The notes beneath the pieces are model-generated. The model did not search any database. It saw only the letters and a program-made list of their open reading frames with translations, and was not told the DNA's origin. Below, piece after piece: positions 31,840 through 55,536 of a stretch of DNA of 64,000 bases (the stretch's first letter is position 1; each line of letters opens with the position of its first letter). The DNA comes from Marsupella aquatica (taxonomy: Eukaryota; Plantae; Marchantiophyta): positions 18,852,857-18,916,856 of the forward strand of contig OZ316893.1 of assembly GCA_973895155.1 (NCBI GenBank). The letters are read 5' to 3'. The position numbers and the translations under genes are program-made.

Positions 31840-33646
31840 TTTGTGCCTGTGCCTCCTACCTGGACCCCTCTGGTGCCTCCTTGGCCAATCCACTTGTGTT
31901 TAGGGGTGTCTTTAGATCCAAAGGGAGCTCATACACTCGGTGTGATCAAGGGAGTGGTAGGCGAGGTGGTAGGACAGTGACACACCATGACATTCAGGAT
32001 ATGGTGGCAGCCATTGCATGCTTAGGACTTGGGATACCATGCTACAATGGAGTAGTGACATGTGCTTCCACCGCGGGATGGTATCCAATGTTGGGTAGCT
32101 CCAAATCGATACACAGCAGAATATACCCAAATTAAAACCGCAATGAGTTGCTCACGGTGCAGAGAACCAACAACTTGTGTATTCCTAATCAATCCTACCA
32201 AAATTGAAAATACCGAGCTCTCTAGTGAGCTCCAAATTGATCACAACACAATCCCAATTACAATCACAATGTACAAGTTATTGACAATGCTAGCTCCTCT
32301 CTTCCCTATAGCCCTCAACGTCACTCAATGAAATCATAGCCTTTTTTTCTTCCCGCAACCCTGATGTCTTGGAAAATTTATATATGAGAGGTTCCTCAAA
32401 GAGAGACCAGGGTACACAACATCATCACTTATCAATGATTGATAATTGATATATCAGCCATTGATACCAATTATCAATTTTGACGCTAAATGTTTTTTGA
32501 ATCTCATTTGAGTAGCTAAGATGGGGCCTTTGCACCTTCGTGCAACATCTCAACTGGGCAGAGATTGGCCCAATCTTGGCTGACCTCGACGAGATAGGCG
32601 TACGGACAAAAACAATTGGGCAAAAACAAAACCATAAAATTTTCAAAAAAATATTTCAATCTTTTTGGTGTTAGTACCACACGGACACCCACCCATCTTA
32701 GCTAACCTCACTGAGATGGGGAGCACGGACACCCCATAGTGAAAAAACCAAAAAATGCATTCTCCCTTAAATTTTTTGAAAAAAAATATCAATTTTTTCT
32801 GTTTTTTAGCTTGCATCGCAACTCAATTTCTCTCTGAGATGAGGTGGTAGCTGATATCAAGCGGACTGGTGGAGATGACTTATAAATGATGAAATTACTT
32901 ATCTTAGAGAGTCCCCAATGTTTGGAAAAGAGAGTGGCCCCAATGTATCCCTTAAAGAAATGATGTAGTGCTTGGGCAATACTTTCGCCCTCTCCTTCAC
33001 ATCACCCTTGTCCCCTCCCTAAGTCCCTGACACCTGGAGGCTACAAAGTTCTCCCCCTCAAAACCTAATTTTGGAGTCCCACCAAGTGGATTTTTACTTT
33101 CAAGGTCTGGTTGAGTCAAAGTTTTCAGTTGGGGCCACACCAAGAAATTCATGTGGCTGAGGAAATTGTCACTTCCCATGGGGTCCGGAAAGACCATTAA
33201 CAAGGCAAGGGATCCATTGGTATTTGCAATAACATACCATTGTTTGGAAGATTAATGTGTTGAAATATTTGCTAAAAAATGCAATCAATACAGAAAAAAG
33301 TAGCGAAGAATCTGTATACTCATAAGGCATTTGTCACAAAAAGCTATGAGAAATTGCTCAACACAATTTTGATAATACCAAGTATATAGGCTTTTTTGAC
33401 CAGCTAAAAGGCAATTGCCTAGGACAAGGCTTGAACTAGCTTACAGGCGGGGAAAACAGTTCATGTATAGTTTTGTATTACTTTCCATTATTCCAACAAC
33501 CTACCACGGGCGCCTATGGCGTATAACATATTTGACCCATCCAAAATGTTTTGGCACAACATATACATAACAAGCAAAGAAAAATTGTCTAAACAGGATT
33601 GAACTTGATACATGTTGGTCCCGACTACCCATGGCCATTTGAGCTA

Positions 33647-33782
33647 TGTTGTGCGCATACACATCGCTACACAACATACATCGTTTGTCACACATATCCA
33701 AGCATAGTCACAATCTAACGACACAAACCTAAGAGAATGATCTACAAATGGAACCCATGTCCATACATGCCCAAAACCCACA
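33647..33782 (-). repeat. Terminal repeat Y2 (136 bp)
   Basis: Matches 34115-34250 with 2 mismatches counted by eye; TG...CA ends. Confidence 0.95.
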
Positions 33783-33783
33783 A

Positions 33784-34112
33784 TAATCTTCTTCAATAGT
33801 GCAAATCCAACAACGATCGGTGCTAATCCAACAACGATCCCATCCGACGCGATCACACATGTATGTCAAGCCCAACACACCTTGTGCTTCAAGGAATCCA
33901 CATTACATGCACACAACCTGGTGAGCCACACCATAGCCACCAAGCTCATGCTCAAAGGCTCAACATTGAAAGATGAGGCCTTTGAGCCAACACCCGGGAT
34001 AACTATCCCTCACACCAACTCAAACTAAACATAGTGCTCATGTAGCACACATACAAAACCTCTATACCTAGATAGTATGATATACTTTACTACCACTCTA
34101 AATGGTGTGACA
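33784..34112 (-). repeat. Terminal repeat X2 (about 330 bp)
   Basis: Matches 52504-52833 with about a dozen differences counted by eye. Confidence 0.95.
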
Positions 34113-34114
34113 GT

Positions 34115-34250
34115 TGTCGTGCGCATACACATCGCTACACAACATACATCGCTTGTCACACATATCCAAGCATAGTCACAATCTAACGACACAAACCTAA
34201 GAGAATGATCTACAAATGGAACCCATGTCCATACATGCCCAAAACCCACA
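34115..34250 (-). repeat. Terminal repeat Y1 (136 bp), directly after the PPT-like tract
   Basis: Copy of 33647-33782, preceded on the minus strand by TAGGGGGGCGAT. Confidence 0.95.
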
Positions 34251-34425
34251 ATCGCCCCCCTAGCTGGAAGTGAGGTCCCCTAACTCTAGCTAGCCATGAT
34301 TTCTACAAGGTTGATATACACCTTTTTAGGTGTGAAGATCAAGAGGCCGGGTGCAAGTGAGCCCCATTGATCACCTACCTGCAATTTATATCTTCCACGA
34401 GAACACAAATGATAACTAGTCGGCA

Positions 34426-34570
34426 TCACCGACATTGAGGACACAACCATGATCCACTAGGAATCATGTGCAAGGGTGGTGTCAAACACGACATGTGCCA
34501 TCCTCTAGAACACCAATCACAAATTAACATAGTAGCTGCTCCCTAAGCAGACCCACACAACATACATTTC
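34426..34570 (-). pseudogene. PHD finger at the integrase C-terminus
   Basis: KCMLCGSA*GAATMLICDWCSRGWHMSCLTPPLHMIPSGSWLCPQCR is a C4HC3 finger, in frame through one TAG. Confidence 0.9.
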
Positions 34571-35757
34571 AAGCCAGCACGAACATGTGTCAAGCTTGGA
34601 TCCACAGTACCATCAATGTTTGGAAGATGACACGGCGCACAATTACGCACATGATCCTTCCAAACCATACCATCACGTCCTTCCAACATAAGGACTCCAG
34701 AAGGCAACACTTCACGCATACGTAAGATTGTCCGCCCTGCGGTCACATCAAGCGTCGTTGGTGCTGTCCGCTGCAAATAAACATAATCGCCAGGATGAAA
34801 TCTTCTAATCCTCGTGCGATAACCTCCTCCACAAATAGTAGCATACCGCAAAGTATCACGATGTTGGGCAATAGCAAGGTTGTCAAAGGCCATGGGCATG
34901 ACTCTCTCAAAAACTCGTGTCCTCTCTGAACAAACCTTGAATCAAACATCTGGATCATCCAAATCCACAACATTTGCAACATCACGACGAATAGCCGCTG
35001 GCAAATCTGGCTCTCTACCATAGAGCAAGAAATAAGGTGAAAAGGATGCAAGTGATGCTTGTCGACTGAAACGGTAGCCCATAGCTAACCAAGGTAGTTG
35101 GAGATCCTAGTCTCCCAAATGACCAACTTGCAAGCCATACTTACGCAATCCTCTCTTCACAGTTTGTACAACTCTCTCTGCCAATCCATCTGTCTCAGGA
35201 TGATCGCGAGAAGTAGTACGATGATCAATCAGAGCTTGCTCACACAAACCCTCAAAATCTCTACGGAATTATGTGCCCTAATCAGTCAACACCTCAGCTG
35301 GTGCTCCAAAGTGACTGAGTACTCGATCCAAAAATGTGGTAGCCACTCCTCCACTAGCTTTATCTGGCAATGCGACTAGTTCAATCCACTTGGAGAAGTG
35401 CTCCACCATAACCAAAACATACCGATTGTGACGTTGGGTAAGAGGCAATGGACCAGCAAAGTCCAAACTCCATCGATATCCCAAACCCATGATCGGTAGC
35501 GGATGCAACTAAGGAGTGGGAGCATTGAACGATGCTCGCACTCGATCACAAACCATACACTTAGCTATCAATTGCTGGACATCAGTGTGCATACCACGCC
35601 ACCAATACTGTGTCTGCAGCAAGCTATAAGTGTGCTTCACACCAAAGTGCCCTAACTCTTTGTGCGCATGTCGCATCAAATGTACTCGTTGTGACAGTTT
35701 TGGTACAACCAACACCTTCCCATCACGTAGTACCCTCAAAAGATGGTTTCCTTCCCA
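34571..35757 (-). pseudogene. Gypsy integrase (HHCC + DDE core + C-terminal domain), disrupted
   Basis: HKELGHFG...CMVC, WSLDFAGPLP...VEHFSKW...VLTD, FHPGDYVYL. Confidence 0.92.
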
Positions 35758-37446
35758 TCAAAATCTCTTGGCTCGTTGTAGAACCCTATCACCCTCCTTA
35801 GCATCAACATTGCCACCAATGGAGCCACCATACAAATATTCCAACACTCTCACATCGTTGTGAATATCTTGCTGTCCAAAAACTACATCACCAACATCCA
35901 TATCCGAAGACTCATCATCTACTCCATCCAATGAAGTAGAGTCTACATATCCACTACATACTGGCACCCAACAAAGGAAAGCAGATGCATGCCATCCTGG
36001 CACCATCTCCTTATCTGTCTCATCATGCCATCGAGCTCCAATCTCATCCTCTTGACTGGTACATGGATTGCGGCTCAACCCATTCGCATCCAAATTCACT
36101 TTTCCAGGTCTATGCACAACCTGAAAATCATACTCCTGCAACAATAATGCCCATCGTGCAAGCTTCCCTCTAAGCTTGTCAGACTCCATTAACCACTTGA
36201 GAGGTTGATGATCAGTGATCAAGGTGAACAAATTACCAAACAAATAGCAACGGAAATGTGCCACAGCCCACACTATTGCCAAACACTCTCCCTCATAAGA
36301 GTTGTACTTAGCCTCTGCTGAATTGTTGGATCTACTGGCATACGCCACAACAAACTCATTCCCATCATCATCCTTCTGAGTCAACACTGCTCCAAGTCCT
36401 ACTCCACTCCAATCAGTGTGAAGCTGAAATGGTCGCCCTGAAATGGGTCTTCTCAAAATAGGTGTTGATGCCAGTCTTTCCTTCAACTCTTGGAAAGCAT
36501 GCTCCTGTTCGTCTCCCCAAATCCACTCCTGATCCAACTTAGTGAGTATAGTTGAAGGTTTAGCAAGCTGGCTAAATCCTTTAACATACCTCCTATAGTA
36601 GCTCGCCAATCCCAAAAATGCACGAACTCTGCCCACATCAATAGGACGAGGAATCTGTGTAATAGCCTCCACCTTAGTCTGTTGCACACCCAATCCTCCT
36701 GGGTAGATAGTGTGGCCCAAATACTCAATCTTCTCTTAAAAGAACTTACACTTGCCGGGATGGAGCTTCAATCCATGTTCCCTCAATCTTTCAAACACAA
36801 TCTGCAAGTGTCTCTGATGTTCTTCCACAGTAGAAGAATAAACTAAAATATCATCAATATAACATCTGACAAAATCCAAACCTGCAAGGATTCGATCCAT
36901 GACTCTCTAGAACTCAGCTGGTGCATTCTTCAACCCAAATGGTAAGAACAATCACTGATACAAACGATCTTTGCCATAAGAATCAATCCCCCAGAATGTT
37001 GTCTTGGACCTATCAGAATGCCTAATTGGCAACTGATGGTATCCCGCCCTGAGGTCCAACAAACTAAAAATCCTTGCATGCCCCACTGCATCAAAGATCT
37101 CCTCCGGTGTGGGCATGGCATATCGATCAGATTTTGTTTGACGATTAATAGGCCGGTAATCACCGCACATTTGCCTATCCGTGTAATTGCCATGCACATC
37201 CTTCTTGGCTGGCATCATTGTGGCAGATGCATACTCTCTGTATGAAATCTCCACCAAACCAGCTTCCAACAAATCCTGAGTTCTACTCCGGATCAATGCC
37301 CTCTCCATATCACTATATCGATATGGTCGTCGAAAGATTGGCGCATCACTAGCCAGTTCAATCTGAATACCAGGGCCCTTCAATGTTCCCAAATCCTTCA
37401 TGCTAAATGCAAAACAATTCCAATAACTCTTCAAGAATTGATGCAT
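35758..37446 (-). pseudogene. Gypsy reverse transcriptase + RNase H, disrupted
   Basis: CGDYRPIN, LDLRAGYHQL, RCYIDDIL near 36860, FLGLASYYRRYV, LHTDWSGVGLGAVL, YASRS..YEGECLA, TDHQPLKWL. Confidence 0.95.
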
Positions 37447-37696
37447 TCAAAGTCTCTCACCCCCTGTCAACTTAGGACCAATTTGTGGCTCCCAACTCTC
37501 CATCAAAGCTGTGATGTCTTCCTTCGGGGTTGAAGAGATAGTCGGTGGTTGCTATTTAGCAACAATTTGAGCAGTCCCAACCTGCTCAACAATCTGTCCT
37601 GCCTTGGCCAATCCTGCCATAGGTCCATGGACTGTCTGCTCGCCCCCAGCTGTGGTCGCTACTGTCTCAGTAGACCGCAAGCTCACCAATGGACGA

Positions 37697-38720
37697 TCAG
37701 TAACACCAAAAGAGCGCATCCGGCCACAATTGTTCAGCTAAGATTCCCAAGCTGATAATCCAAGTCAAGCAATTCAAATCCATGGCTTGACCAAGGACTT
37801 GGCGGCGTGAACTCTCTAACACAGAGGCAACCGCAGTAGTGCCAGTAAAAAATCCCATAGCACGCTCTCGTTCATCAGCAGTAGGTTCCACTAACTGTTG
37901 TAGAGTTGTATTCCATACAAGTCCAGGCCCACCTGCTTTGAATGCATATGAAGCAGAATGACTCACAAAAGTGGGTAATGCACAACGTGGGCGACCAACT
38001 ACATTGACCACTGCCAATGGAGGTCTGTCAGGCTGGGTCACACCTTGTGCACGATGCCTTGGATCCAAAATATCATCCACCACCAAGGTTGTTGAGCGAG
38101 GAATGCTATCAAATGCTCGCTCCAACACCTCCCAAGGTAACAAATTAGTCCACCACAATCGTGGACAATGTGCACAAGAACCCACACGTGCAACATCCAA
38201 TAACACAATAGGTCCAATCCAAGACTTAACCTGATGAACGCTGGCAACAAGTCAATGACGATCATCACCCAATAATGGCACATTCTCCAAAATGTAGGCA
38301 AAGGAATGTGTCTGATGCAACTGAAGATGACGCAACACCCGTAACATCTCCCAAAACAATGCAAATCTTGGATCATGAAGTCCATGTCCAACTCCAACTC
38401 TAGATTGACCCTGACATGGCCAACCTGCAATCACCAAATCAATGGGGCCAACGCGATCCAAACGATCCACCCCCAACAATGAAATATCAGATGGCAATGC
38501 ATGCTGATAACCACGAACGGCATCCACTGGCAACAACTGTGGGTAACGTTCGACCAATAATGCCACATGACGTAATGAGCCTCTACGTGCTATCTCATCA
38601 GTCTCCACATACAAATAACGGCGCACAAGAATGCCGGCTTGAAGAACGGTAGCCAATCTAGTGCTAATTCCACCAAATAAATCCAACAAACAAATACCCT
38701 CATGTGGATATTGCCATGCA
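37697..38720 (-). pseudogene. C5 cytosine DNA methyltransferase domain (DNMT3-like) within pol
   Basis: Motif I LDLFGGI, II YVETD, III SDI, IV AGWPCQ, V DPRFALF, VI LENV. After one in-frame TGA (38252-38254): VIII AHCPRLWWTNL, IX ERERAMGF, X RRQVLGQAM. Confidence 0.93.
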
Positions 38721-39125
38721 ATAGGAGTAGTATCTAGTGGTGAAAGAGTCACTGGTCCATTTGCAGTTGACTGTTCTGCTCCTGATTGCGGTGTAAAAGC
38801 ATGACGCCATGCATCATGTATCAATCGGGCTGCACTTTGTGGCAAGGCCTGCCCAGTACCCCATACTGGTGTCACAACACTATCAATGGGAAATCCATGC
38901 ATCAAGTGTTCCTCATGTGCCTCCTCCACCGTAGGAACATCTGCTGCATGTGCATTACCCTTAATCAAATCATCAGCTCCAGTAATCAAACTATTGAATG
39001 CTGCCAAAGACAATAGTGCAGATTTGGGGCCTCCAATAGGTCCACTAAATTGCACTGGCAATTGGCTCAATCGAGCATCTCCAGATTGCCAATTGGGTCG
39101 GTACGACACCGATTCATTCCAAAAA

Positions 39126-39430
39126 TCAAGAACAAATCTCATAGGATAGAACTGTGCATCCCACCAAGACATCATATGACTCAGCCTTAGTCAAAATAGC
39201 TCGAGCCTGGATCCGTGAGTTATCCTTTGAATGATCCTCCTGAATCCTAAGTTCAAGTGCTCGTCGAGTGATATGTTGTGTGCGTGTAGGTCCTCCCAAT
39301 GAAGTCTGAATGGGAAAGGGACACTCCTCCAAATTATCAGGACGCAATCCCAATCCTCTTATCGCAGACTTACCCAACATCAAGGGCTGAGCACCAGTAT
39401 CAAGTAACACTCGCTCTGGCTGGTATATTG
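39126..39430 (-). pseudogene. Retroviral-type aspartic protease
   Basis: VLLDTGAQPLMLG...YDVLVG; a frameshift near 39150 leads into the DNMT-containing frame. Confidence 0.85.
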
Positions 39431-39449
39431 CTCCAAAAGGCCCAACTAA

Positions 39450-40574
39450 TCAGAAGATACCACTCCGATTATCAAGTGATATGACGCTAGGTTTAAACCT
39501 AGTCCTCTCATAAGCAGGGTGCGCTGGTAAATCTATCAACCTTGCCGCTGCTGCATGCCATGTCTCATTACTGGCAATAGGTGGATTCAAATCCACTGCT
39601 TCTAAATTGGGCGTTGCTTCTGCACGTGAAGCAACAATTGGAGTGTCCTTGCATAATGTGGCCGCCAATCTGAACACCTCTGTTGGACTAACTCCCAATG
39701 CCAACATATCCGTAGCTGAAAATAATGGCATTTTCACTATAGTAGTGGCCGCCCCCAACAGGGTACTTGTCATCCCTGTCACAATATCACTTGAATCCGC
39801 CAACTTACCCCCACCTGGGTTAGTCCAAACCGGATTCATAGAGGTAGTTTGAACTGCCTCTAACAATGTGAATAATTGGGGAAGCTTCGTTTGACGATGA
39901 AGATCCCCTCTCTATGGATCCAATTCTACCACTGCTCCTCGTGGCTCAAGGGCTTTTGCTGCTCCTCGAGTTAATGCTGCAGATGCATCAACATGCGCAG
40001 TGCCACACATAAATCCCATGGTGGCAAGATCTCCATCAGCTCCATAAGAGGTTGAAGCTCCATAGGATGTAGAAGCTCCATCACTAGCAGTAGGTCTAAC
40101 TTGAGAACTAGCCATTGCAGCTAGTTGTTGCTCCAATTGAGCAATCTTTGCATCCTTAGGATCTGTGGTAACGGTAGGAGCAACATCACCTCCCTGTCTT
40201 CCTGCATGTGGCATGCCTCGACCACGTCCACCACCTCTACCTCCTCTTCCCTGATCATACACACTTGGTCCTCCCCGTCGTAGTTCAAGATGAAGTACAA
40301 AACACCTATCTTTGGTGTGTCCAGAAACTCCACAATGCTCACATTGTCGTTGATCAGGCGTAGATGCCCCTCCTTGCCCCCTAGTATCCGGAAAATATCT
40401 TTGTGCATGATCCCCACCACAAGTCCAACATCCTGACTATTGTCCAGCATAAGAAGACACGGGTCTCTGACTAGTAGATTCCCGTATTGTAGGCTTCTCC
40501 CTTTGGCTCTTACGTGCAGTAGGTTGCGGTGTGGGCGTCAATGCAACCTTTGGTGCTTCCTTGGAAAATCCGGA
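39450..40574 (-). pseudogene. Gag C-terminal part (Cys/His knuckles, RGG tract) and gag-PR linker
   Basis: CGGDHAQRYF- and CEHCGVSGHTKDRCF-like knuckles at about 40300-40430; GRGGRGGGRGRG. Confidence 0.75.
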
Positions 40575-41416
40575 CACTAGAAGAATCCAAGGTGAATTGA
40601 GACCGCAATATGTGACTCATTTTGGCTCATGTGACTTCATTGTGACTCACGCTGTGACCCTTAGAGTTGCAAAAGTTGAGACCAAAAAATGGAAGTCATT
40701 CTTGATACTGGGCTTTGCAACTTGCTTGATACCCATTTGTGACTGATCTGTGACTTTATTGTGGAGTCTAGCCTTGTTTCTACGTGACTGCAATATGACT
40801 TTAACGAGTCACATGGTAAGTCATATACATGACTTGCTCGCATTCAACAACGACTAGCGTGTGACCATTTAGTGTCACAGGAGAGACCAATGGAGACTCT
40901 GGCCCGGGTCACACAACATAACCATTTGGGACTCTATATACTCATGTTTATAACTAATAAGGTTCACATGCAAGTTGTAACCATGACTAATGAACACAGA
41001 GGGACAGTTTATAAGGAGAGAGAGAGCACTCCACATTACAATACATAGAAACCTGATGTTCTAACTTTAGAAATATAACACATTGAATACAAGAAATGAA
41101 CATAGCATGAATGACATCCACATCAAACAAAGCATCATATAAGCAAATCCTACATAAAACATTCATAAGAATTAAACAGAATCACAATCTTGCTCTAAAA
41201 TTTAGATCATTTGAATTCCAATGGAATAGTTTACAATGTGATCAATGTAATTTAGACAAAACAGGAACTCATAATTGATGACTGCAGGATGAGATAACTG
41301 AAAGCACATGCATGATACTATGAATCTCCAAGAGGACATGATTCTTGTACTCCTTCTTGACATCTAAAATCTACATAACATGACTCATAGTACAAACAAA
41401 TAATGACATGACATTG

Positions 41417-44400
41417 TTATGGATCCTCTATGAACTTGCTTGGCCATAATACCAAAGAACCTGCAGCATCTCCAAGTGTCTTTTGAGGAGGATCATCATT
41501 TGTGTTTGGAATAGGAATGACAGCTTTAGGTTTCACTAGTAATGTGACTAACACTACTAAATAACCTGGGGGAATCCTCTTGCCATGGAACGTTGTGGAA
41601 CCAACCTGCACTCTGCCAAATCCTACTCGTGTTCCACTCTCATCAACAGCTAACAAGCCACTTTGTCCCTCAACATTAGGTGCTTTCCCCACTTCCACCT
41701 TAAATCTTTTTGCCAGCACCGTTCTTGGAGGTTTGTATGAAACCTTTGACGTGGCTCTGCTCCCACCAGCAGACTTGCTTTGTGTGCGCATGCTTCCTCT
41801 CTTCACTGTAGTGAAGCTAGGCTCAGTAGGTTCCTCTGTTAGGACTGTCATAGTAGCAGGTTCATCACCTGGGAGTGTCATACCAACTAACTCTTTGGTT
41901 GGTTTTATCTCAACAAGAGGCACACCTGTCATTGAGAATGATACATTCTGCAAATCATTTATCTCAGCAATGGAGTCAAGATCTACATAGCATGAATCTG
42001 GCTCAATGGTATCATTGTCATGCTTGCTGATATCCTCATTTGCCCCAACATTGATATCATCCACTCCCTTGCCAATGTCATCCTCATCCAAACATGGTTG
42101 ACTGCCCTCTGTCAAACAAGTTGCTTGTACAGACTGCAACTTTGTTGCCTCTAAATTACAATGAGTATTTGCCAGGTTCTCATACTTCTTCTCTGCAGCA
42201 CCTGCCTTATTCTCTATGGACACAACAACCACAATATATGTTACTGAAAATAACACATTCAACAAACAATGTCAATTCAAACTATACATTTACTAATCAT
42301 ATCCCACACAGTTGTAAAGGCCTTACCTTCGAGCCTACATGTCATTGGCATGCCAGAAGAGTGCATCGACTTTGCCACCTCAAGTGGTGATGGTGGAACT
42401 CTTGCAGAATTGGAATCAATTTTATCTCTCACCGACACAACAGCTTCCATTAATGTCTTGAAGTTCACATGGAACAAGTCAGTCAATGAATTCAAACGTT
42501 CATTGATCTCTGGAAGACATGTTTCGACAGCCTTCAAACGACCACTTATCTCTGTAAGTGAAGATCCACCTCCCTACATGACACAGGGGTATAGGTTCAA
42601 TCACTCCATATGAAATGTTGGGCAATATATGCACAATCAATGTTATATACAGTGTACACCTGAAATTCAACGCAGGTCATTCAATTACCAATTAGAACTC
42701 ATATAACTTACATGCTTGGAGGATTCAGATGCACCCTCTTGAGCCCGGGTGTTCACAATTTCAGCCCTCAACTCTTCTTTTGAAGGGCTTTGCCCCAATT
42801 GGGCTTTCTGCACATGCATGGCAAACACAAGTTATCATTATTATTCAGGGAACGTACACTAAAAAACAAAGTGAACAGTACATAGTGTAGCATAAATTAC
42901 ATACCTAGGTCATTGATTCTTACCAAACGTTTTGCTGTCGGTGCAGTGCCGGTCCTTCCTGTCAGATTAGGGTTCTGAACACTCAACCTGGCCTCGGTCA
43001 TTTGTGAACTCTTCTTTTTCGAAGCATCTGTTACAAAATAAGCTACTAACCTTGACCACACTTTATCATCACAACTGGCTGGTGGAGGCATATCTGGCTT
43101 CTCCCCACCTTCCTTCCAAACCTTATGCATTCTCCACCTCTCTTGCTTTATGATTTTACCTGCTGTACTCTCTAGGCAACCTATGTCCACGCCATCATCA
43201 CTGCCCACATAATTCCATTTGGCAGCAACATTTTCACATACAGTCTTCCAATCTTTTGGATGCTGTTTTTTTAAATTAATAACACTCACATCTAACCAAC
43301 ACAATACTTCAGCTTTCAAATCAGCATGCCATCGGTTCTTACGAGGACACTCAGCATCCACCCATTGTCTCTCATTCAACTTTACGTTCCCTTTCTTTGT
43401 CACCTCCCCTCGTGCACTGCTCTCGGTAGTACTGGGCGTTCTATTGGCCACCCCTTCATTCACCCTACCTGGGGTTCTGAAGCCACCTGGGAAAATACAA
43501 TGCCATTCATGCTTGAGAACTACATACAGCATAATGGATGACGGCAACATTCAATGCTTCACTTCAAGAAAAATTCTTCAAACATACATACCTGTAGCTC
43601 TGCCTGTAGATGCCTGTGCAGGGACTGCACTCTGGAATTGTTGTGACCCTGGACCACCTGTCCAGCCTAGTACAGGGGCCGGATGATGTCACTTTCTAGG
43701 TATGTAACATATGTACTAAAAACATAGTACAAACTATAGGAAAACATATGAACATTCACCAACATACCTGGCCCCCTTTCGTGCTGCATCTGCATAGGGG
43801 CATTAGTGAATACTTGAGTCGATGGTTCGACTGTCCAACCTGCACACATACATTTTCTATTATTATACATGTGCAGAATCCCCCCCACGTCAATGGACTC
43901 CACATTTAATGAGTTCTTCCATTGCTGACAAGATCAGACATTACCTGCCCCTCTTCCAGCATTTGTAGGTACTGTATTTTGAAATCCCTGCCAATTACCT
44001 TCACCACCTTCCCAACCTTATTCATTCCACGATCCACCACCATCCTCCCAACCTTGTTCAACCCATGTCTGTCCTTGTGGACATTGGAACTGATCATTAC
44101 TAGCATTTGCCCAATCAGGTTGGGCAGAATCTGCATGCAATGGCACGTGGACAGAATTTCATGTTGTCTGAATCCAATACATCCCAAACAATGTCAAAAA
44201 TTGATATGCAGTCTGAAATTCAGGATTGCCATGCCTTCACAAATAACTGGCATATAGATATATACTCACATCCCCATGGTTGAGGTGGACGTCCATACCC
44301 ACGAGACTGTGAGTTTGGACCTGCTCTGCCTCTACCACGGGCATAACCTAGAGCTTGCCCCCTGCCATAGTATTGGGCACCAGCCTGGGATCTACCACTA

Positions 44401-44746
44401 CTACCACCTCGCCAACCTTGATCAGAGGTCAGCCCCCCTGCTGGTATGGTGCATGCACAGGCTTTGCAGGCAAAACAGAACTGGCAGGACGCTGCATCAC
44501 ATCACCAACTACAATGTCAAGAACTAAGCAAGGTACATAGGGTGTAGTACTGAACATATGAAACCTCTCAACAAGAGTTTTTAACTCTAAACCTAGCTTG
44601 TTGGGAAAACTACTTACCTGTTTCTTTTGGGGCTGCTCTGCAATGTATTCATCTTCATAACCCCCATCCTCATCCATTTCCTCTAGAAAATACTCATCAT
44701 CTGCATCTTCTTGTCTAGTGTCTACACCCACTTGCGCAGCATCCAT
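41417..44746 (-). CDS. CACTA TnpA-like accessory gene (multi-exon; boundaries approximate)
   Basis: DKVWSRLVAYF...KKKSSQMTEAR...TGRTG (Ptta/En/Spm-like) and C-terminal TTFHGKRIPPGYLVV...TLGDAAGSLVLWP (Tnp1/En/Spm-like). Confidence 0.7.
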
Positions 44747-45299
44747 GTCATCTCCACATTATGCCATTGTAGGTACGACCTTCTTGCTCACTCTGTCACT
44801 CCGGCGCATGGGCCCAGAGATAGTGCTGGTCACCCTTCTTGTGTACTCCTTTTGTTTCTTTGAAAAACCTGCTGCTCTGCGACATTCCAACATGAGAATA
44901 CAGTCACAATTTCAGTGCCACATTGAACTATTCATGTCACACAAACTCAGCGGAGGGGTGTAGTTGAGAATCGTTCCCTTACAATTCAGCCACATCCTTT
45001 TCTAGATCCAGTTCTGCAATTTTGGCTTTCACGTATGCTCGTTGTTCCATAGCTTTCCTTTCATACTCACACATCTCTGTGTCACTCTGTTCCATCCTAC
45101 TGGACCACAAAAACATGTCATCTATGGTCACCCCGTATAACACAATGCAACCACAATCACCAGGCATCCATCCATACATCTGTGTTGCTTTAGAATTACT
45201 TTATTACACATTCCCTCACTAATGTCCATGCAAACAATTCACATTACTCATGGCACAGGCACACTGTTGGCATCTGCATCTCTGAATTCACCTCCTTCA

Positions 45300-47038
45300 G
45301 CAAATGCATCTACCCTTGTCACAGGAATGAAGTCCCCGCTATCATGAACTACAGGCACTTGGTCTGAACGCCGACGATCAAAGGCACTATGAGAGTGTAA
45401 ATGAAACTCAAGGTTTGATCCTTCCATCCGACGTTGCCTGGCCTATTTATGACACACTACACGCCAACCTGGGGAGTCTTCCACATCCAGGAAAAAAGCT
45501 TGCTCCACCTGACTTGGAAACACAAATGGCCCAGACCATTCTGGCAATTTCCCTCTGAAATTGGCCAGCAAGAAACCGTCATTGTCTCTCTTCATGGTAG
45601 CCCTATTACCAAGCCAATCCTGCCGCACCTATGAACCTTTCATAAGAATCACAGGACTGGACACCGCCCCATAGTCCAAAGCCCATATGTCAACTAATTC
45701 TCCCACATATCCCATCTCCATCCAGGCCCTGTCGTGATTGTGGCTCTGTTGCTCAAATACAGTTATGAGCCCACAGTCATTTGTCACCCTGTAGGCACTA
45801 TCACCATCCTTCACTCGAAAGTGATTCCCATATGCTCTCATCTGTTTGTAAGTCTTCACTTTCAGGCTAGGGGCATTAGACAATAGGTAATTGTCTGCAT
45901 CCATGTCTGGGTGGGTCTCGTGATGCTCTCTAATTGCCACTCTAATCCACTCCATGAAACCTGGAAAAGTTGTTCCTACAGTGGGATGGGCCGCCTTGAA
46001 TGACTCATACTCCCTGAACAAACAACCACACAGCATTAGCTTGGGTAAATATGAACAGGCTGAAGGAGAAAATCACACGCACACAACATTTAAGCTCATG
46101 AACTGGATTATAGCACATGTATGCACTCACTGTATCCATGGTTCCATCACCACAGTGTTGTGCAATACAAAGTCATGTGCCAAGTCTCTCATAGATGTGG
46201 TCAGGTTCTTTGTGGTTGCAGCCCCTTCCAGTACTTCACCTATCACCCCTTCCTCCTCATCAGAATTCCACACCCTGGTCTTCACATGCTCATATTGTGC
46301 TATGTATTCGGTCATAAATCCCAGAGTCTCATCCTTGATGTAACCTTTAGCCATGCTTGCTTCAGGTTTGTAATATGTTCTCACGTGACCTTTGAGTAGC
46401 TTCATGTACCGTTCCAAAGGGTACAACCAACGACCACTCACAGGCCCAAATTGGTGTAGCTCTTCCACAACATGGACAAGTAGGTGGGTCATGACATCAA
46501 AAAATGCGGGAGGAAAATAAATCTCCAAGTCACACAGCACCTGAGCGACATCTTCTGTCAGTTGTGGGAAGTGTGTTTCATCCCAAACCTTCACAGAAAT
46601 ACGACGAAACACATCACTGAGTCGCATGATCACATTACGAACAGGCTTCTGCAACAGGCCCCTCAGACATAAAGGCAACACCTGTTGCATCAACATATGG
46701 TAGTCATGGCTTTTCATACTACCAAGCTTTCTAGTCATGATATGCTTCTTGAAAGCACTGCCATAGTTTGAAGGAACCTTCAAAGAACTCAACCTCTGCA
46801 CAAATAGTTGCCACTCTGTGTCTGTCAGAACATAGGGCGCTTGGTACTTCAAGAGCACATCAGCTCTGTGGGCATGTGGCCTCAACCAAAGATGGGGTTT
46901 CATTCCCCTTTGTTCAAGATCCAATCTCATTGAACCAGTGTCTTTCTCTCCACACAAGAATCTGAGTAGACTCTCACAAATATTCTTCTCAATGTGCATA
47001 ACATCAATGTTATGTTTGCTTGGCTCAAACTCCTGCAC
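45300..47038 (-). pseudogene. CACTA transposase (TnpD-like), C-terminal half
   Basis: DVMHIEKNICESL, MKSHDYH, FFDVMTHLLVH, WLYPLERYMKLLK, PFVFPSQVEQAFF..D..GWRVV. Stop at 45629-45631; N-terminal half not evident. Confidence 0.9.
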
Positions 47039-49955
47039 CGTTGCAATGCAAAAGCGTCAGCAAATGCCTCAAGTTTAGTCTCTCTCTTTGAAATGAATGC
47101 ACATGCTCTGAACCAAAACATGTATCCCAATTAGCATCAACTCCAAGAGGCTTACCCTCCAATACTTGAGCTCCAAGTCCAATATGCTCAGTCTTTTTAC
47201 ACCATATCGCTTTATTGGTTCTACAATTGGTTCTCCAGATCAAAATGCAGCACACATACTTCTGGAACCATTCAGATTCGGCCTTGCCATTTTGTTGCCT
47301 CCAAGCTCAATTCATCCATGTCCTACTTGAAGGCAAAATAGACAAAAATAGAGCAAAACCACTAACCAAGTAGTGTTTGACCATAGGGACAACAAATTGA
47401 AACAGAGAGAAGGCTGGCAGCCCAAGCCAATAGTCTTCCATAGGGGAGAGAGTACGATCAAGAAAGTGAAGAACATGTAGTTCTTACGCAAAAAACTCAG
47501 CAACAATAGACAAATTCACTAGCCAGAGGGAGTGAAAAGCAAATGAGTACCAAGCCAACCAACTAAGACTGACTATGAAATGCAAGTGACGTCATTACAA
47601 CCAAAACAATACAACAAAGCACTTAGGCAACATTAATACAAAATTGTAGAGGAATTATATCATGCGATAGATAGTACTCGGTTCTACCTGAGGTGTACAA
47701 TCATACTCCCCTCAGGTAGAATGTGTATGCAGTTACATACACATGACGATCCCCAAGAAAGCAGACAACAGTTCCTAGCAGACAACAGTTCCTAGCAGAC
47801 AACAGTTCTTGTTGCGTGTCTCAGGCTGATTTTTACTTTCCAGACTTGAGAGTTGTGAAGGTAGTTTTAGTAACTTTCCTTTGACTCGATTTGGGAGCAT
47901 TTGACCTATCTGCTAGCTTGTAGTTAGCTTCATGATGTCTGTACACTTTGGTGTCCGAGCCGAGCACCGATTCTTCCTCTCCTCTATTTTAGCTTCGTGA
48001 TATCTGTACACGTTGGTGTCCGGGCTCTGATTCTGCCTCTCCTCTATTTTTGCATCGTGATAGGCTTTGATCACAGTAGCGTATTGGAGCATGGAAATTT
48101 GAGGTCCATTTCAAGGCAGCGGGAATAAGTACATTGATCAACTGGAGACCAGAAATGCGCATATGTGAATGTCATACCTTTCAGGCGGAAGTCATAGGTA
48201 GCAAGTAGCAGGCATGAACTTGCAAGCAGCAACTTGCGCTCTGTTGCCCCCTGCAGCTTACTAAAAGAACACTCCACTGAGAAGCAATGACAACGGATTG
48301 GAGCTCCTCCCCAATTAATATAGTCTCCAACCAATCACGTTCATGATCTGAGGTGAGACATGACATACAATAATCGCTGATGCAGAGATCTAAGAATCGT
48401 CTCAATCCAAGGAACAGAACATCTCACGACATCACGGACATTTTACAGTAACAAAATGCAACACCCACCCTATGCATCTATAACATTGAGTACAAACATT
48501 CATGGATTGCAAAATTACTCTACACTTCATGCGTCACCTTCAGGTCAAGTCGTAGCTCCAGCCACAACTCATAGGTCGTAGCTCCAACAAGTAGCTGCAA
48601 CCACGGCTCACAAGTCCAGCTCCCCTGTCAGCTCACATGAATAGCGCCTCCCTTCGCTGCACTCCATGCATCTGTTGCTAGTTGCAACACAAACATTAAG
48701 CAGTCAATAAGCAGGGCCACTTTCATTGTACACAATGTCACATAAATCCTACCTGGACGGTTTGCATTGGAATAACTGTCATAATCACCCCGGCCGTAGC
48801 CTTCACTGATCAATGTGAAGGGCGTGCACCTCAATGCCAGCATTCAGTGTCCGGGCTCTTGTGAGTGGAGAATGAGTTTAAAGACAACAAGAGGCCATAA
48901 CATTGCCTCCACCTACAATGTATGTCATTGTTGAGGTAAACTTACCAAATGTGAACTCCAATCTCTGCCCACAAGAACAACTCCTTGCGACTCTTTTGCG
49001 CGTCCACAGATTGTCTTACTGACAATGCCAATGCAAAAAAGGGCCCGATCGCTGTTGCAACCACGATGATCCACCTCACGCTAGATAGTTGGCCTTCAAG
49101 ATCACTCCCCACTTTTTTGCAGCTCCTCAGTTCTACGTCGCAGCTCCCCGATCCTCCACAACCCCTTGCCCACGGCAGTGCTGCAATAAAATAAGCTCCT
49201 GGTCGCAGCTCCTCAGTTATCGGTCATAGCTGCAACAACATAAGCTCATAGTAACTCGGCCTAAACCCACAGCTCAGTCCTCCAATGACAAAATACCTAA
49301 ACCTTGGCCCAAATGCGAGCTCCCGATAGTATTCAGACCTTGCAACATTCAACTGGAAGCGCACAATGGAGAAGAGCTTGAAGGTCGCACACCTGAAAAA
49401 ATCAATCATGGATTGATCTACGAGCTGGATATTGGAGTCTGTGTCTCTCATCCAAGGCTTCCAATCATCTGCTCTAGTCCAAAGCTCCCAAAAGTATAGA
49501 GGGCAGATGTACACTCAAGCATGACAAGCGGGAGTGAAGTCCGTAAAGCTCCTCTCCCTAAACGATGGTTGTTGGTAAGCACAATGGACATCCAAGTTTT
49601 TCCTTGACAAAAACCTCCGAGTTCCCGCGCACCTTCAACTCCCATTTGCACTCTGCTGGTGTGTTTCCTGTTGAAAAACCCGCTCACCCTAAACTTGTAT
49701 CCAAAGGCAAACTCACGCACAATGCATACCTTAACACTTAGTGAGAGAACTGAACCCAGTGACACTCGACCACTTTGCGTTGACATGAGCCGTAAACCCT
49801 AAAGCAAATTTGACACAACACAATATGAGCAAAGATTAAATGAACGCACAGGGCTAGGATTAACCTTACAATAGCCTTGTTGCATGTTCATTAATTAAGA
49901 GCACAAATGATGAGCCTAAAAGAAAAATAATACTATCTAAGATCAAGCCTTCTTC

Positions 49956-49978
49956 ATATATATATATATATATATATA
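49956..49978. repeat. (AT)n microsatellite
   Basis: Run of AT dinucleotides. Confidence 0.9.
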
Positions 49979-50537
49979 GCATGCAAAAATATAGTAGTTG
50001 GACATCCAATGTTCTATGGCTGGTATAGAGGGTAGGACAAGTGGTAAAGATGGGGAAAATTAGAGATTGACTACAAAAAGCATTAAGTTAGGTTAACAAG
50101 GTTTGACAAAGCCGGCCTTTTTTTGTTTGAATGGGGCTGAGGCTTCATTGTGTCTAAATGGGGTCAGGAGTAATTATGGTTTAGAATGGTACGACTAAAC
50201 TATTATTAAATTGATGTGGAATGACATATGGTGTATCCAAAATCATATGTATATGGTTGCGGATCCCATACTTTAAGGTTTAAGGGTTTAAATGTAGTGG
50301 TCTCATAAGTTGTACTCTAATGTAGAGTCACTTGTATAACTTCACCCTAATTGCCTTAACTAAGTTATAGTTGCAACTTACCTAAAAGTTGTAAACATGA
50401 CTTGGCAAAACTTCACCAAAACTCAGTCAAGAAGGTGTGACTAACATGACACCAACAACCTTGGAGTCGCTATTTCATGAAGGTCTTGGACAAGTCACAC
50501 ATCTCCAGGTCTCAAAACGGGTGGATTTCTTCTAGTG

Positions 50538-51473
50538 GGAAGTTACCACCTTCTCATTCACCATATTGAGCTCAATGCGCTCAGCAAGTGAAAAAACTAT
50601 AGCCAATGTGGGATCTGAATCCCTCAATAGAGTGGCATCTCTCACTCTACGACGCAACTCCCTATCCAGAATTGCATACCAAAATTGGACCACTTGGGCC
50701 TCTGTCACTCCTTGTGTGACCGTAATCAACCTTCGCATACGAGTGTATGCCTCACGTAGGCTCTCTCCAGTCTTGCGCTGGAACTCCTGAAGACCCTTCA
50801 ACTTCTCGGTTCTCACACCCTGGTAGTTCTGCTTCAATACTTCAAAGAACTTCATCACAGGGTTAAATGTTGGCGCAGCTCCACTCCCAGCCACAATCAC
50901 ACCGGTAGGAATAGCGGTGGATGCTGATGGAGTGCCACTCTGGCTAGTGCTGCTAGAAGAAGCCGCAACTGTAGCAATGGGTTGGGCAACTGCACTTGTG
51001 CCATAAGTGATGGACACATAGTTTGGTGACCAATGCTGTCTCCATGCCTCAATATCCACTAAATGAGCCTTTCAAAACTCATGGTAGTCATCCATGGGTG
51101 GCCCCTCCAAATGCTAAAACAACCCTTTCCAAGCCATGAAAGGTGTGAACAATGTGGCATTACGCATTGTCTGCATATCACACCACGTATCAAACTCTTG
51201 GATGAAATCATCCAAATCAATCGTGCCAATTGCACCAGAGTATCTCCTCGGCCCTTTCGTGGTCCCATACATCTCCTCCATATCCCACAACAATGGAATA
51301 GTCACTTGATGTTGAGGAGAAGTGGCTACTAAGTCCTTGTCAGAATCACTATCTGAAACCCCACTTGTGACCACTAACAATGTCGTCGGCCAAAATTGCA
51401 CTCCACTCCGAGTGAAACCAGCCCGTCGTCCCTCGGGTAGCCCCATATCACCAGAGGACTCCGTGATGACCAA
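50538..51473 (-). pseudogene. Gag N-terminal/capsid part of the DNMT-Gypsy
   Basis: DLDDFIQEFDTWCD and FQRKTGESLREAYTRMRRL (retrotransposon gag homology region); continues at 40574 across the CACTA. Confidence 0.85.
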
Positions 51474-51525
51474 TTTTCCCTAAATGGTCACCATCAACTC
51501 ACCACTATCAATAATCAACCAATTG

Positions 51526-51866
51526 GCGGAACGGTGTTCCGCGGATACCCATCACTCAATCGCGGAACGGTGTTCTGCAATGCACCACCACCAATCTCCA
51601 AGACAATTGACAGAACGGTGTTCTGTAAATTGCTTAGTTGCGGGACAGTGTTCCGCAACCCTCCATCACCAATAGCCAAGCTAATTGGCGGAACAGTGTT
51701 CCGTGAGTTGCCTAGTTGCGGGACAGTGTTCCGCAACCAACCCTTCTTCACAACGTAGACGAGACGTGTGCTGGGGCAGACCAATCTTCCCAAAATTACC
51801 ACAATGGAATGGTGCTCCGCAATCGACCAATCTCCAATATGCCCCCTCAACAGAATAGTGTTCCGT
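51526..51866. repeat. Array of eight 17-bp palindromes (GCGGAAC-RGT-GTTCCGC) in the retrotransposon leader
   Basis: Copies start at 51526, 51562, 51610, 51640, 51688, 51718, 51804 and 51850. Confidence 0.85.
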
Positions 51867-52503
51867 GAAAGACCTTCACAATCTTGTTGCTGCGAAAACC
51901 CTGCCGCAATTCCCGGACAAAGCACTGTTCACTAACTTTGTCATTTTCCTTGTGCCCTAGGTCGCTGCCGCACCTCGCTTCTCCGCGGTGCGCTACGTCG
52001 CCGTAGGCAATGCAATTTGCCAACATTCAACGTCGCTTTCTTCAAAGGAATGCACTGTCCGTCAACATCAAACTTGATGAATCTCAAATCCGCAACATAC
52101 AACTTCAACGATCAACTCCCGATTGGGACCATCCCCGAACCAGAATCACAAACAATCACAAGTCTGACCGACTTGCCTTCACAAAACCGCAGCGAATACT
52201 CTCAACAATCCGCGCATAATAGTCGACAATAGCTTCCGATCATCGACCGCACACTTAGTCTTCCAAAATGCTGCAATGTTGATCGATGCGAACTGCAACT
52301 CCAAACGCACACTCAACAACTCAAAGCTCCGCATTCACTAGAGCTTTCTCAACACCAACTTGTAACAGATCGAGATACCAGCGATCCGTTCAACAACAAA
52401 ACCCGATCCGAGATACCACGAATTGTCAACAACAACACCACAACAAAATCGAACTTCTGTTTGCACAATCCGTACATCAGAATTCGAAGCTGATCTTTCA
52501 ATG

Positions 52504-52833
52504 TAATCTTCTTCAATAGTGCAAATCGAACAACGATTGGTGCTAATCCAACAACGATCCCATCCAACGCGATCACACATGTATGTCAAGCCCAACGCAC
52601 CTTGTGCTTCAAGGAATCCACGTTACATGCACACAACCTGGTCAGCCACACCATAGCCACCAAGCTCATGCTCAAAGGCTCAACATTGAAAGAGGAGGCC
52701 TTTGAGCCAACACAAGGGGATAATTATCCCTCACACCAACTCAAACTAAACCTAGTGCTCATGTAGCACACATACAAAACCTCTATACCTAGATAGTACG
52801 ATATACTTTACTACCACTCTAAATGGTGTGACA
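52504..52833 (-). repeat. Terminal repeat X1 (5' end of the DNMT-Gypsy)
   Basis: Copy of 33784-34112; ends gtgaca followed by TSD gcta. Confidence 0.95.
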
Positions 52834-53771
52834 GCTAACTCAATAGGGGCAACTCAATTGGTTCAAAGAAGAGAGTTATGGTATAGATGAATTTGGAACT
52901 ATCTACACCTTCATGAATATGCCATTTCATGCTATTTGAAGTGGTCTACCTTCAATCATGTTTTATTTTCTCCTAATTCTAGGTTCTGGAAGTTTGCATT
53001 TCCCGCATGTTTTGAGTTTGGTGTTTGTCTTCACACAACTCTTTTTGTGGTAGACAGTAGACTATATCGTAATGTAGCTTTTTCATGGCTTAATTGAAAT
53101 CAAAGTTTTGGGGCTTGAGACCAGGATTTCAAAACCAGCCAATGCACCTTCATTTGCTTGCATGTATTCAGTGGTTGAGGACAAATCAAAAGTAGTTGAT
53201 GAGAACTAAATTGCAAAAATTGCACATATAGAGATATTTTGTGGTAGCAGCAAAACTTTGTTGGATCCTATCTCAGTCATTTTTTATGACAATGGACAAT
53301 TTGGCCTAAAAAAAAACTTTGCAGAATGCAAAAGTGCCCTAATGCCAAGTGCCATTTACTGGGTGAAAACATGACCATAAATTTCAACTCTAAACTGTGA
53401 GCTTATATATCGTGTAGACAAAATGTGATTAGTAAAAGGAGAGTCTATCTAGTTGCTTGTAGTTGGCCAAAACAGGACCCGTTTGTTGAGCAAAGATGCA
53501 ATTGTCAACAGCATGCACATGTGACTTCCTTTGAACAAGTAGTCAACATAGAGAGATTCGTGGTTCCAGGTGTGGTTCACTTCCGGTGAGGCTACATCTA
53601 TAGGAATACACAAGAACTTTAATGCACTTTAACCCCGTTCGCCATACCAAGTCATCACAACACAAGCTCTCCGTATCTCTCAAATGACTCCATAACATTG
53701 ATTATGAGTTTCCTATCCACAAGTGTACATTGCATGTGTATATGGGACTTAGCACAGCTAACCTTACCAAG

Positions 53772-55536
53772 AGTTATAGAACTCGACTACCTTAACACTT
53801 AGCTCCGGCATTGTTGACTCTGACACCAAGTTCCTCTATGGTCCAAGCCCCCGGAATGGCCATCCAGTGGGAACTAAGTATGGGGAGACTAGTAGGCAAC
53901 AAGGGGTGGCACTAGCAAGGGCGCTAAACTGGTGATGCACACTAAGGACCTAGACTAGCTTAGGGCTGGCCTGAGGGCTGGTTGGGTCATGGGAAGGGGC
54001 CAAGCTTAGATTGGAGCATCCGGACCCCCGACAGACTTTGAGTTCTCAAAGTTTGAGTGAGAGCTCCTCTTGAGCCCAAGGCTAAAGGAGTTTACATCAT
54101 GTGCAACGGACGCTTGGCGCAAACGATACGGCACAACTGTCTGGCACCCCTGAGTGACAATGGGTTATGAGGGCCTAGGCAGGAGCATTGGGCTGACCCA
54201 ATCACAACGGGCTAAGGCACTCCGCCTAAGGACGTCTAGCTAGAAAGTTATGGGCATAGCAAGCTAGTTGCGTGCCAGTTAGAGTCCAGGTGGGGGGCCA
54301 AAAATAGGGACCAAAACCGGTCCAAGGTGGCAGGTCTCCAGAAGCATATATGAGGGGAGTGGTGTCTCCCTAGGGGCCAAGGGTGAGCCCAAGTTGTGAG
54401 CTGCAATGGTCGCGACACCAAGAGGAAACGCTGAATGGAAACGATGATAACTTCTCAACGGGAAGTTTGTTGGGGGACTTCTTGGATGCATTGGAAATCT
54501 CTTGAGAAATACTACATCCTCCTAAGCTCATCTGGGTTTGGGGATGCCATGGATTCTTGGGGTTTGCGGGGGCTATCTCGCCTGCTTGCCAAATCCTGCC
54601 AAAACAACAGCCAAACCGCCTTCAGTCTCACACGGGAACTTGCATTGGGAGCAACAACAAAGTAGGCATGGAGGTTGGGTTCCAAGTGCATTTGGCCCCT
54701 AGACTATCAGTTGAGTGGGAACCTCGGAGTTGGTTGCTATAGTCAGGGCCAATGTGGTTTCAACATTTTAGGACAAGCCTGGGACAAGCTAAGCTATTTG
54801 GGCCATGAGCATGTGTTGGGGGTAGGGTGGTTAGCCAACTACGGATAGAAAGTGGGGGAGCACAGGCGGCACCCAACGAGGGGCTGTTCTGGACGAGCAA
54901 TGGGTGTTGGCTTTGGCTTATGTCAAGGCCATGCTGTTGAGCATAGACGACACTCGTAACCGTAGTCGACATAAGAGATACGTGGTTCACCTCCTTGAGG
55001 CTACGTCCACGGGAACACACAAGAGAGCTTTACTGAACTCTAAGCCCGTCGGCTATACCAAGTCTCCACAGTGTAAGCTCTCCTCATCTCTCAAGTGGCC
55101 CCATAACAATGAGTCTAAGTTCCACTTATCCAAGCAAACACCGCTTGGCATATAGTGTGCATCCTAGTTAACCTAACCATGTCTCCGACTACGGTTAGTC
55201 TAACTATGGTTATATGTCGTAACCCTAGACCTTGAGTAAATACCTAACACATGCGAGCTCGAGAGGTTTTATTTGCTGACCTACTTACCAAGCTAGGATG
55301 CTAGTCTTGGAAGGTCTAGATCCTTTGGATTATTTACCATAATGTTTGGTTGCTTGTGCAGACAGTGAGGGCCATTGAGCGAAGGTCGCGTTAGGGAGCA
55401 AGTACTGCTTCATATGGGAGTGACCATTGGGGGTGCAAGGAGCACCAAGTTGCTTGCTCAAGGCGTTTGGGCACCAAGAGCACTTAGGCATTGGTGTTGA
55501 GATTGGTGAGGGTGTTGGGTGGCAAGGTCCACCACT
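53772..55536. mobile_element. AGT...ACT element copy 2, 5-bp TSD CCAAG
   Basis: ccaag|agttatagaactcg ... caaggtccaccact|ccaag; colinear with 25053-26533. Confidence 0.88.
54935..55249. mobile_element. Solo LTR, 315 bp, TSD CATGC
   Basis: catgc|tgttgagca ... tacctaaca|catgc. Confidence 0.88.

Follow-up and report, generated by a model that had tools for sequence, protein, structure and literature searches.

Split X...Y-X-Y terminal repeats and a candidate self-primer in a liverwort Gypsy retrotransposon

The window analysed here is the whole of a 64,000-nucleotide (nt) stretch of the forward strand of the liverwort Marsupella aquatica (contig OZ316893.1, positions 18,852,857 to 18,916,856; NCBI GenBank assembly GCA_973895155.1), and positions below count from its first letter. 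Its minus strand carries a Ty3/Gypsy-type retrotransposon, spanning 52833 to 33647 between two copies of TAGC (GCTA on the plus strand), whose long terminal repeats (LTRs) are split into two parts, X and Y. The order of components on that strand is: TAGC-X1-gag-protease-cytosine methyltransferase-reverse transcriptase (RT)-RNase H-DDE integrase-PHD-polypurine tract (PPT)-Y1-2 nt-X2-Y2-TAGC. A preliminary description of this DNA had claimed split X...Y-X-Y repeats around a DDE-integrase retrotransposon with a GCTA duplication, and both the repeat alignment and the flanks bear this out. The element has the following features:

52834..52837, minus strand: 5' target-site duplication TAGC, read from the sequence
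52505..52833, minus strand: X1, left terminal repeat; starts TGTCACAC, the left attachment end; likely holds promoter, R and U5
52720..52728, minus strand: weak TATA-like box, putative, about 30 nt before the self-primer
52683..52694, minus strand: predicted RNA 5' end and 12-nt self-primer, CTCTTTCAATGT in X1 and ATCTTTCAATGT in X2 and most relatives
52493..52504, minus strand: primer-binding site, reverse-complementary to the self-primer and unlike a tRNA (TGG) site
50538..51479, minus strand: N-terminal part of gag, broken by stops; matches a second copy at 9659-10130
40575..50537, minus strand: nested CACTA/EnSpm DNA transposon with CACTAGAAGAA inverted ends, TCC duplication, DUF4218 and Transposase_24; a later insertion
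39129..40574, minus strand: C-terminal part of gag (CCHC-like knuckles), then aspartic protease (PF13650, E-value 5e-4, below the curated cut-off)
37700..39190, minus strand: C5 cytosine DNA methyltransferase domain inside pol (PF00145, E-value 2e-8)
34432..37539, minus strand: RT, RNase H, integrase and PHD finger in one frame with many in-frame stops; HHCC and D-D-E residues kept
34253..34261, minus strand: PPT AGGGGGGCG, directly before Y1
34115..34252, minus strand: Y1, first part of U3; begins at the PPT, ends CACGACA
34106..34121, minus strand: internal attachment-site junction CACGACA-AC-TGTCACA; family spacer GC
33785..34112, minus strand: X2, rest of the complete internal LTR, from repeat comparison
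33780..33790, minus strand: X2/Y2 joint, primer-defined end fused to PPT-defined end; likely a fossil end-to-end junction
33647..33784, minus strand: Y2, supplies the right attachment end; ends CACAACA
33643..33646, minus strand: 3' target-site duplication TAGC, read from the sequence

X1 (52833-52505) and X2 (34112-33785) are 96.1% identical, and Y1 (34252-34115) and Y2 (33784-33647) 98.6%. Because the window's repeat matches have E-values of 1e-152 and 1e-63 and the layout recurs in other insertions, these repeats are not due to chance. The lengths first reported, 330 for X and 136 for Y, need slight correction: with boundaries set by the primer and the PPT they are 329/328 nt and 138 nt. 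The Y1/X2 junction, claimed on the minus strand as CACGACA-AC-TGTCACAC, reads as stated, and X1 is indeed followed by no TGG-type primer site, the next bases being ACATTGAAAGAT. Absent from the preliminary description were the methyltransferase domain in pol and the CACTA insertion in gag. The former sits between protease and RT, a position shared with locus L078 and protein P0045. The latter measures 9,963 base pairs (bp), leaving an element of 9,221 bp; at 40575-50537 of the minus strand it looks like a complete transposon. The PHD finger was placed via alignment to the relative P0003, and the N-terminal part of gag (50538..51479) gave no Pfam match. The window copy is dead: its pol lies in one frame but has many stops. 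A 78-bp tandem array occupies 51562-51742 in its leader.

We surveyed the family in the contigs of four public sequencing runs and in 77 metagenome loci found with protein alignment, of which 45 match X or Y and 32, being short or distant, do not; the merging of 6 duplicate pairs left 39 distinct insertions. Each of the 18 visible 5' ends opens with X, and Y is absent from the 700 nt that precede it; related full-length copies with ordinary YX...YX LTRs, the contrary case raised in the preliminary description, do not appear among these ends. Among the 3' ends, 20 are Y-X-Y and 13 are Y alone; 2 show Y-X before the contig stops, 1 (L029) passes from Y-X into unrelated DNA, and 3 are missing. 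Insertions with both ends visible read X...YXY in 8 cases and X...Y in 5. Contigs leaving the element at the Y end into unrelated flanks number at least 30, 48, 53 and 47 in the four runs (agreement 0.37-0.45), and family depth drops past the end of Y2 in 4/4 runs. Past the start of X1 it falls from 5928 to 35 in run X3 and from 1915 to 0 in run X4, where at least 3 contigs show breaks from the X start into unrelated flanks.

A young family is present in two genome-collection contigs: L079, in which the two Ys of PPT-Y-GC-X-Y are identical, and L078, which holds a complete unit with the domain set of the window element. Both are plant-type copies inside a cyanobacterium-labelled genome bin, likely through eukaryotic contamination, and many further genome bins also contain Gypsy elements. 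We rejected the circular contig L078 as evidence of a circle, its first 127 bases being repeated at its end, which we read as a collapsed repeat. Two candidate split elements were likewise discarded: the pair behind a 900-bp X at L064 belongs to another, nested LTR element, the real X and Y having been located later, and L151 proved to be an ordinary LTR carrying an insertion. No relative turned up in three scans of viral contigs.

In an RT tree of 40 of 71 rows with a midpoint root, all split-type copies tested form one clade (100/99) together with Marchantia, Calypogeia, Klebsormidium, Closterium and Tetraselmis proteins; the tree allows a single origin. We inspected 9 distant Gypsy loci with ordinary paired LTRs, which lie outside the split-type clade; the 6 of them included in the tree are excluded from it. 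The liverwort relatives are proteins of Marchantia, Calypogeia and Riccia, and for these, as for the Klebsormidium relatives, the repeat layout is presumed from the clade alone. In the tree of all 71 rows, whose support values were set aside because rerooting may have shifted them, end branches of X...Y and X...YXY copies look alike and so do not separate the origins of the X...Y form. In P0097 the methyltransferase (residues 813-896) is found between RNase H and integrase instead of ahead of RT, which shows that its position has changed in the course of the clade's history.

The internal junction has the form CA-NN-TG, with a spacer of exactly 2 nt in 26/26 copies: GC in 9, AC in 9, AT in 4, GT in 2, AA in 1 and TA in 1, the first four accounting for 24. 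These bases suggest that GC was the original spacer and that the others arose by methylation decay; the young copies and the majority base of the window's family point the same way. The window's AC is a decayed form of the family GC, position 34114 reading T>C in most of the depth in 4/4 runs. The junction core, GACAGCTGTC, is a palindrome. The outer ends lack the spacer and are flanked by a 4-bp duplication, which in the 12 elements with both ends is exact in 6, has one mismatch in 4 and two in 1, and is absent from 1; TG...CA termini with a target duplication matching at 3 or 4 of 4 bases are thus found in 10/12. The duplication positions match at 81% versus 27% in 132 cross pairs, and if a length of 3, 5 or 6 bp is assumed instead, the match is 25, 23 or 39%, respectively. 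Nicking both strands of CA-GC-TG behind the CA would produce exactly the processed ends that retroviral integrases use. The proposal that the element integrates from a circle opened at the Y/X junction is consistent with a spacer of constant length that disappears on insertion and with a duplication of 4 bp; the closed circle itself stays at likely.

At L012, an X...Y copy (4119-4131 and 13183-13195), GC precedes X and AC follows Y, with TCTA and TCCA next to them. The spacer may be retained at each end, the outcome expected if a cut staggered by 2 nt is filled in; this is a single case and possibly chance.

A 12-mer within X, located some 30 nt beyond the TATA box, is reverse-complementary to the 12 nt that follow X1. 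Pairing reaches at least 10/12 in 15/19 5' ends versus 2/323 control 12-mers drawn from leaders, and is 12/12 in L078. The primer sequence differs among four families (ATCTTTCAATGT in the window's; AGTTTTTCTAGA; AGTTCTTCGAAT or AGTTCTTTGAGT; ATCTTTGTCAAG) and the complementarity is kept. Predicted folds show the primer pairing in 5/5 cases tested, in the window only partly; there the X1 primer has one decayed base unlike X2 and most relatives (position 52694, G>T in most of the depth). Family 1 has a clear TATAAAA at the same spacing from the self-primer as the weak TATA-like box of the window, and it is this spacing that would place the RNA start at the 12-mer.

These observations give the tRNA-independent priming proposed in the preliminary description a concrete candidate, namely self-priming of the Tf1 type. 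In Tf1 the RNA's first 11 bases pair with a primer site that follows the left LTR and are cleaved off by RNase H (PMC7175516, PMC4600332), and self-priming is also predicted for plant Tcn1 elements (PMC6317226). The window family resembles Tf1, Tf1-Sushi and Tcn1 in its 12-nt pairing at the same place; those elements, however, have two whole LTRs and chromodomains, whereas in the window family the repeats are split, pol includes a methyltransferase, and a PHD finger stands where the chromodomain would be at the integrase C-terminus. A 12-nt self-primer complementarity in such an element, as in Tf1 self-priming, appears to be new in the present analysis. A tRNA primer was rejected, as no TGG follows X in 19 ends and the site varies among families; so was microhomology between primer site and Y start as a general rule, 5 nt being shared in L078 and none in family 1. 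In the window family and family 2 the self-primer (52676-52708, minus strand; X of L007/L015) is flanked by an inverted repeat, GGCTCAA...TTGAGCC, which in the 3' copy of the RNA could fold and mask the primer sequence.

With the 12-nt primer as a guide, the X2/Y2 joint consists of the primer-defined end plus the PPT-defined end in the three families in which X1 and the joint are comparable. Of the 17 joints of family 1, 8 meet flush and the other 9 deviate by -3 to +1 nt. The joint differs from the X1 end of the same copy in 3/7 cases, with 7 indels per 2031 nt elsewhere in X, and the close copies L006, L008, L009, L020 and L021 fall into four joint length classes. The preliminary description had taken the Y/X junction for the joined outer ends; that junction would rather be carried inside the RNA, and the joint made anew would be X2/Y2. 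Within a copy the distance between repeats is 0.13 for X and 0.10 for Y, and between copies 0.19-0.21 and 0.14-0.15, respectively. Within-copy similarity exceeds between-copy similarity in every third of the repeats, and no X1-only or Y2-only lineage emerges (7 X pairs, 15 Y pairs). As the repeats are homogenised within copies and form no left or right lineages, both pairs are likely reset from one template in each cycle; Y2 is thus likely not inherited, and the pairs would be reset as in normal LTRs.

The conventional LTR of the family is Y-GC-X. On balance we favour the reading that the window holds a decayed copy of a green-lineage Gypsy element with pre-joined palindromic attachment ends in mid-LTR, which would self-prime, make a two-LTR complementary DNA (cDNA), join its ends and have its DDE integrase open the left palindrome. 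Layout, spacer, duplication, complementarity, joint imprecision and homogenisation are features of the DNA copies themselves, from which we infer every molecular step. First, transcription would begin in X1, some 30 nt beyond the TATA box, and the opening 12 nt of the RNA would fold back onto the 12 nt after X1, with start and cleavage modelled on Tf1. Second, reverse transcription would yield YX-internal-YX, the PPT setting the left end and the self-primer the right; such a cDNA could not be integrated in the normal way because its ends lack TG...CA. Third, the cDNA ends would be joined, giving the X/Y joint and a two-LTR circle. Fourth, the integrase would nick after CA on both strands of CA-GC-TG, leaving 2-nt 5' overhangs, and insertion would follow with a 4-bp duplication. 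The fifth step is the least certain: the left junction would be the one chosen, perhaps since it is double-stranded long before the right one during second-strand transfer. Opening in the left LTR would produce X...Y-X-Y, with the promoter kept in X1. The X...Y form would represent a dead end, arising when the circle has one LTR, when both junctions are cut or when Y1 and Y2 later recombine.

A number of points weigh against this reading. A closed two-LTR circle, which we consider likely, has two equal junctions and predicts XYX...Y as well, an arrangement seen in 0/18 cases; the timing argument for the choice of the left junction is a conjecture. Retroviral circle junctions are reportedly poor integration substrates (titles cited in PMC1180852). 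L012 lacks the 4-bp duplication at its ends. L029 (13440-13700) has the sole 3' end that stops exactly at the primer-defined end of X, with unrelated DNA next; it has no Y2 in 2.9 kb of sequence and, no 5' end having been found, is readable as an ordinary right LTR. Pairing falls below 10/12 at 4/19 5' ends: L024 has other sequence after X; L051 is anchored one base off; L031 and L038 score 9. For the window's own family, the start of X has thin support (3 contigs among those listed), the metagenome loci represent few related samples and two sequence families rather than many hosts, and short-read assembly could collapse YXY to Y. Gene conversion, finally, could equally homogenise the repeats.

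The main rival route dispenses with the closed circle: the plus strand would run off the right end, jump to the left end of the minus strand and recopy Y, and the integrase would process the run-on end and nick the left junction on a branched linear molecule. It yields the same imprecise joint and homogenised Y, it explains the absence of XYX...Y (0/18) more easily, and some joints do overlap by 1-2 shared bases (L009, L043). Repeated jumps, however, might give YXYXY, which is found at 0/20 YXY ends, and template jumping by the RT of this family is a hypothetical assumption of the route. We regard it as unlikely, at perhaps one chance among several; the genomic copies cannot separate it from the closed circle.

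Less probable still, and in our judgement doubtful, is a templated route like that of PAT, Ngaro or DIRS, with an RNA running from X1 to Y2, its ends rebuilt by pairing with the internal Y-X junction and the X2/Y2 joint inherited. The A...B-A-B layout that the family has in common with PAT and Ngaro (PMC7192593, Fig. 1 legend; PMC5890265) speaks for it, and the data leave the position of the RNA 3' end free. Such inheritance sits poorly with the lack of separate Y1/Y2 or X1/X2 lineages in any third, with a joint that varies among close copies and in three families lies exactly at the primer- and PPT-defined ends, and with a self-primer at the X1 end that implies a normal first jump. That a tyrosine recombinase from another element inserts the circle at the junction would account for the layout alone and is very improbable: no recombinase domain occurs in 12 of the 18 open frames of at least 90 amino acids of L078 (the other 6 lie inside two long open reading frames) or in 4 full-length relatives, D-D-E is kept, and TG...CA ends, spacer loss and 4-bp duplications of varied sequence are marks of an integrase. 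A single rearrangement of an ordinary Gypsy element, or an error in its assembly, the alternative offered in the preliminary description, could be suspected in a dead copy with a nested transposon; it fails almost completely, as the layout recurs among related insertions, with X...YXY in 8 others with both ends, YXY with identical Ys in the young L079, and contigs of four runs breaking at the same ends.

By its proteins the element is a Gypsy element and by its ends a non-canonical LTR element. It has the gag-protease-RT-RNase H-integrase order, a DDE integrase with an HHCC zinc domain and a PPT just before the right repeat; two whole, primer-site-bounded LTRs at the integrated ends, the remaining Ty3/Gypsy trait, are not found (0/18 5' ends with Y). 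The best solved-structure match of P0003 is Ty3 Gag-Pol (E-value 1e-91), and by this match the window RT is Ty3-like. The PAT and Ngaro groups are not known to make target duplications. The earlier comparison to these groups holds for the layout, and for the layout only: in PAT and Ngaro, of the DIRS order, the direct repeats are split as A...B-A-B and the joined ends recur in an internal copy (PMC7192593), but these elements encode a tyrosine recombinase. The window family instead encodes a DDE integrase and shows a PPT, a 4-bp duplication and termini of the form TG...CA. The element is not a member of PAT/Ngaro; in our estimate it probably works as a Gypsy element that primes itself and has had its attachment sites shifted into U3. 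The chances seem about even that the same extends to the whole green-lineage clade, from green algae to liverworts and other plants: integration ends would be uncoupled from reverse-transcription ends, each cycle would pass through an obligate end-joined two-LTR circle opened by integrase at the U3 palindrome, and the PAT/Ngaro layout would have arisen by convergence.

The layout has appeared in print once on a methyltransferase-bearing Gypsy element, as a line in a legend: for KnitGypsy-Dnmt3 of Klebsormidium nitens the Fig. 4c legend states a DIRS-like repeat arrangement (de Mendoza et al. 2018, PMC5890265). That element is thus similar to ours in combining a Gypsy pol and a cytosine methyltransferase with a DIRS-like layout; target duplication, junction, priming and integration route are absent from the passages that describe it, and the report concerns the alga only (PMC5890265). 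Two Klebsormidium RTs (P0039, P0062) share the window's clade (100/99) and are not confirmed as KnitGypsy-Dnmt3. In the open-access literature we found no account of priming or integration by an element with such a layout. Among Chlamydomonas Gypsy elements, REM1 and Gypsy-7a_cRei have a PHD finger and the LTRs of Gypsy-7a are drawn in 'subparts' (PMC9940879, PMC2774666); the legend for Gypsy-7a_cRei gives a left LTR without the last 8 bp of the right one (PMC9940879). These two resemble the window element as Gypsy elements with a PHD finger, a likeness by description only.

For the integration step, IS3, IS21 and IS30 provide a parallel, their DDE transposases integrating from a junction of abutted ends with a spacer of a few bp; these, however, are DNA transposons whose transposase builds the junction from the donor. 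Another parallel is the cleavage of two-LTR circles in foamy virus, with a study on HIV-1 also reported (PMC1905944). The integrase of foamy virus is described as cutting a palindromic LTR-LTR junction after CA on both strands in vitro (PMC1180852), so that, as in our model, a CA...TG palindrome cut on both strands gives processed ends with 2 nt lost (PMC1180852). In foamy virus, however, it is the joining of the cDNA ends that creates the palindrome, the provirus has the normal form, and the route is a matter of dispute. In the window family U3 itself carries the palindrome, cutting would take place away from the joined ends, and the product has a permuted form. For decades it has been argued, on thin in vitro and drug-reversal data, whether a joined LTR-LTR junction can serve a retroviral-type integrase as its real precursor. 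The genomic fossils of this family speak to the question: the visible copies are permuted, the cut site is fixed and the joined ends are variable. If our reading is true, two-LTR circles, usually called dead ends, would here be an obligate precursor, and the loss of the tRNA primer would be linked to relocated attachment sites. The family, with relatives in Marchantia, offers a natural substrate and enzyme for a direct test. LTR finders that require two equal repeats would miss or misbound this clade, which carries its own DNA methyltransferase and PHD finger.

Elsewhere in the window, a second, deleted copy of the same family at 7622-10130 (minus strand) is 76-88% identical to the main copy and its sister in the 71-row tree; it contains an unrelated insert at 8038-8332, and no X or Y was found nearby. 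A 1133-amino-acid open frame with RVT_1 and zf-RVT at 12147-15548 (plus strand) belongs to a LINE-type element, and 21937-22467 (minus strand) is a distant integrase remnant with 27% identity to P0003. Two old copies (73%) of a different repeat lie at 25059-26533 and 53778-55536, and further tandem arrays occur at 61966-62470 (155 bp) and 4741-5236 (10-53 bp).

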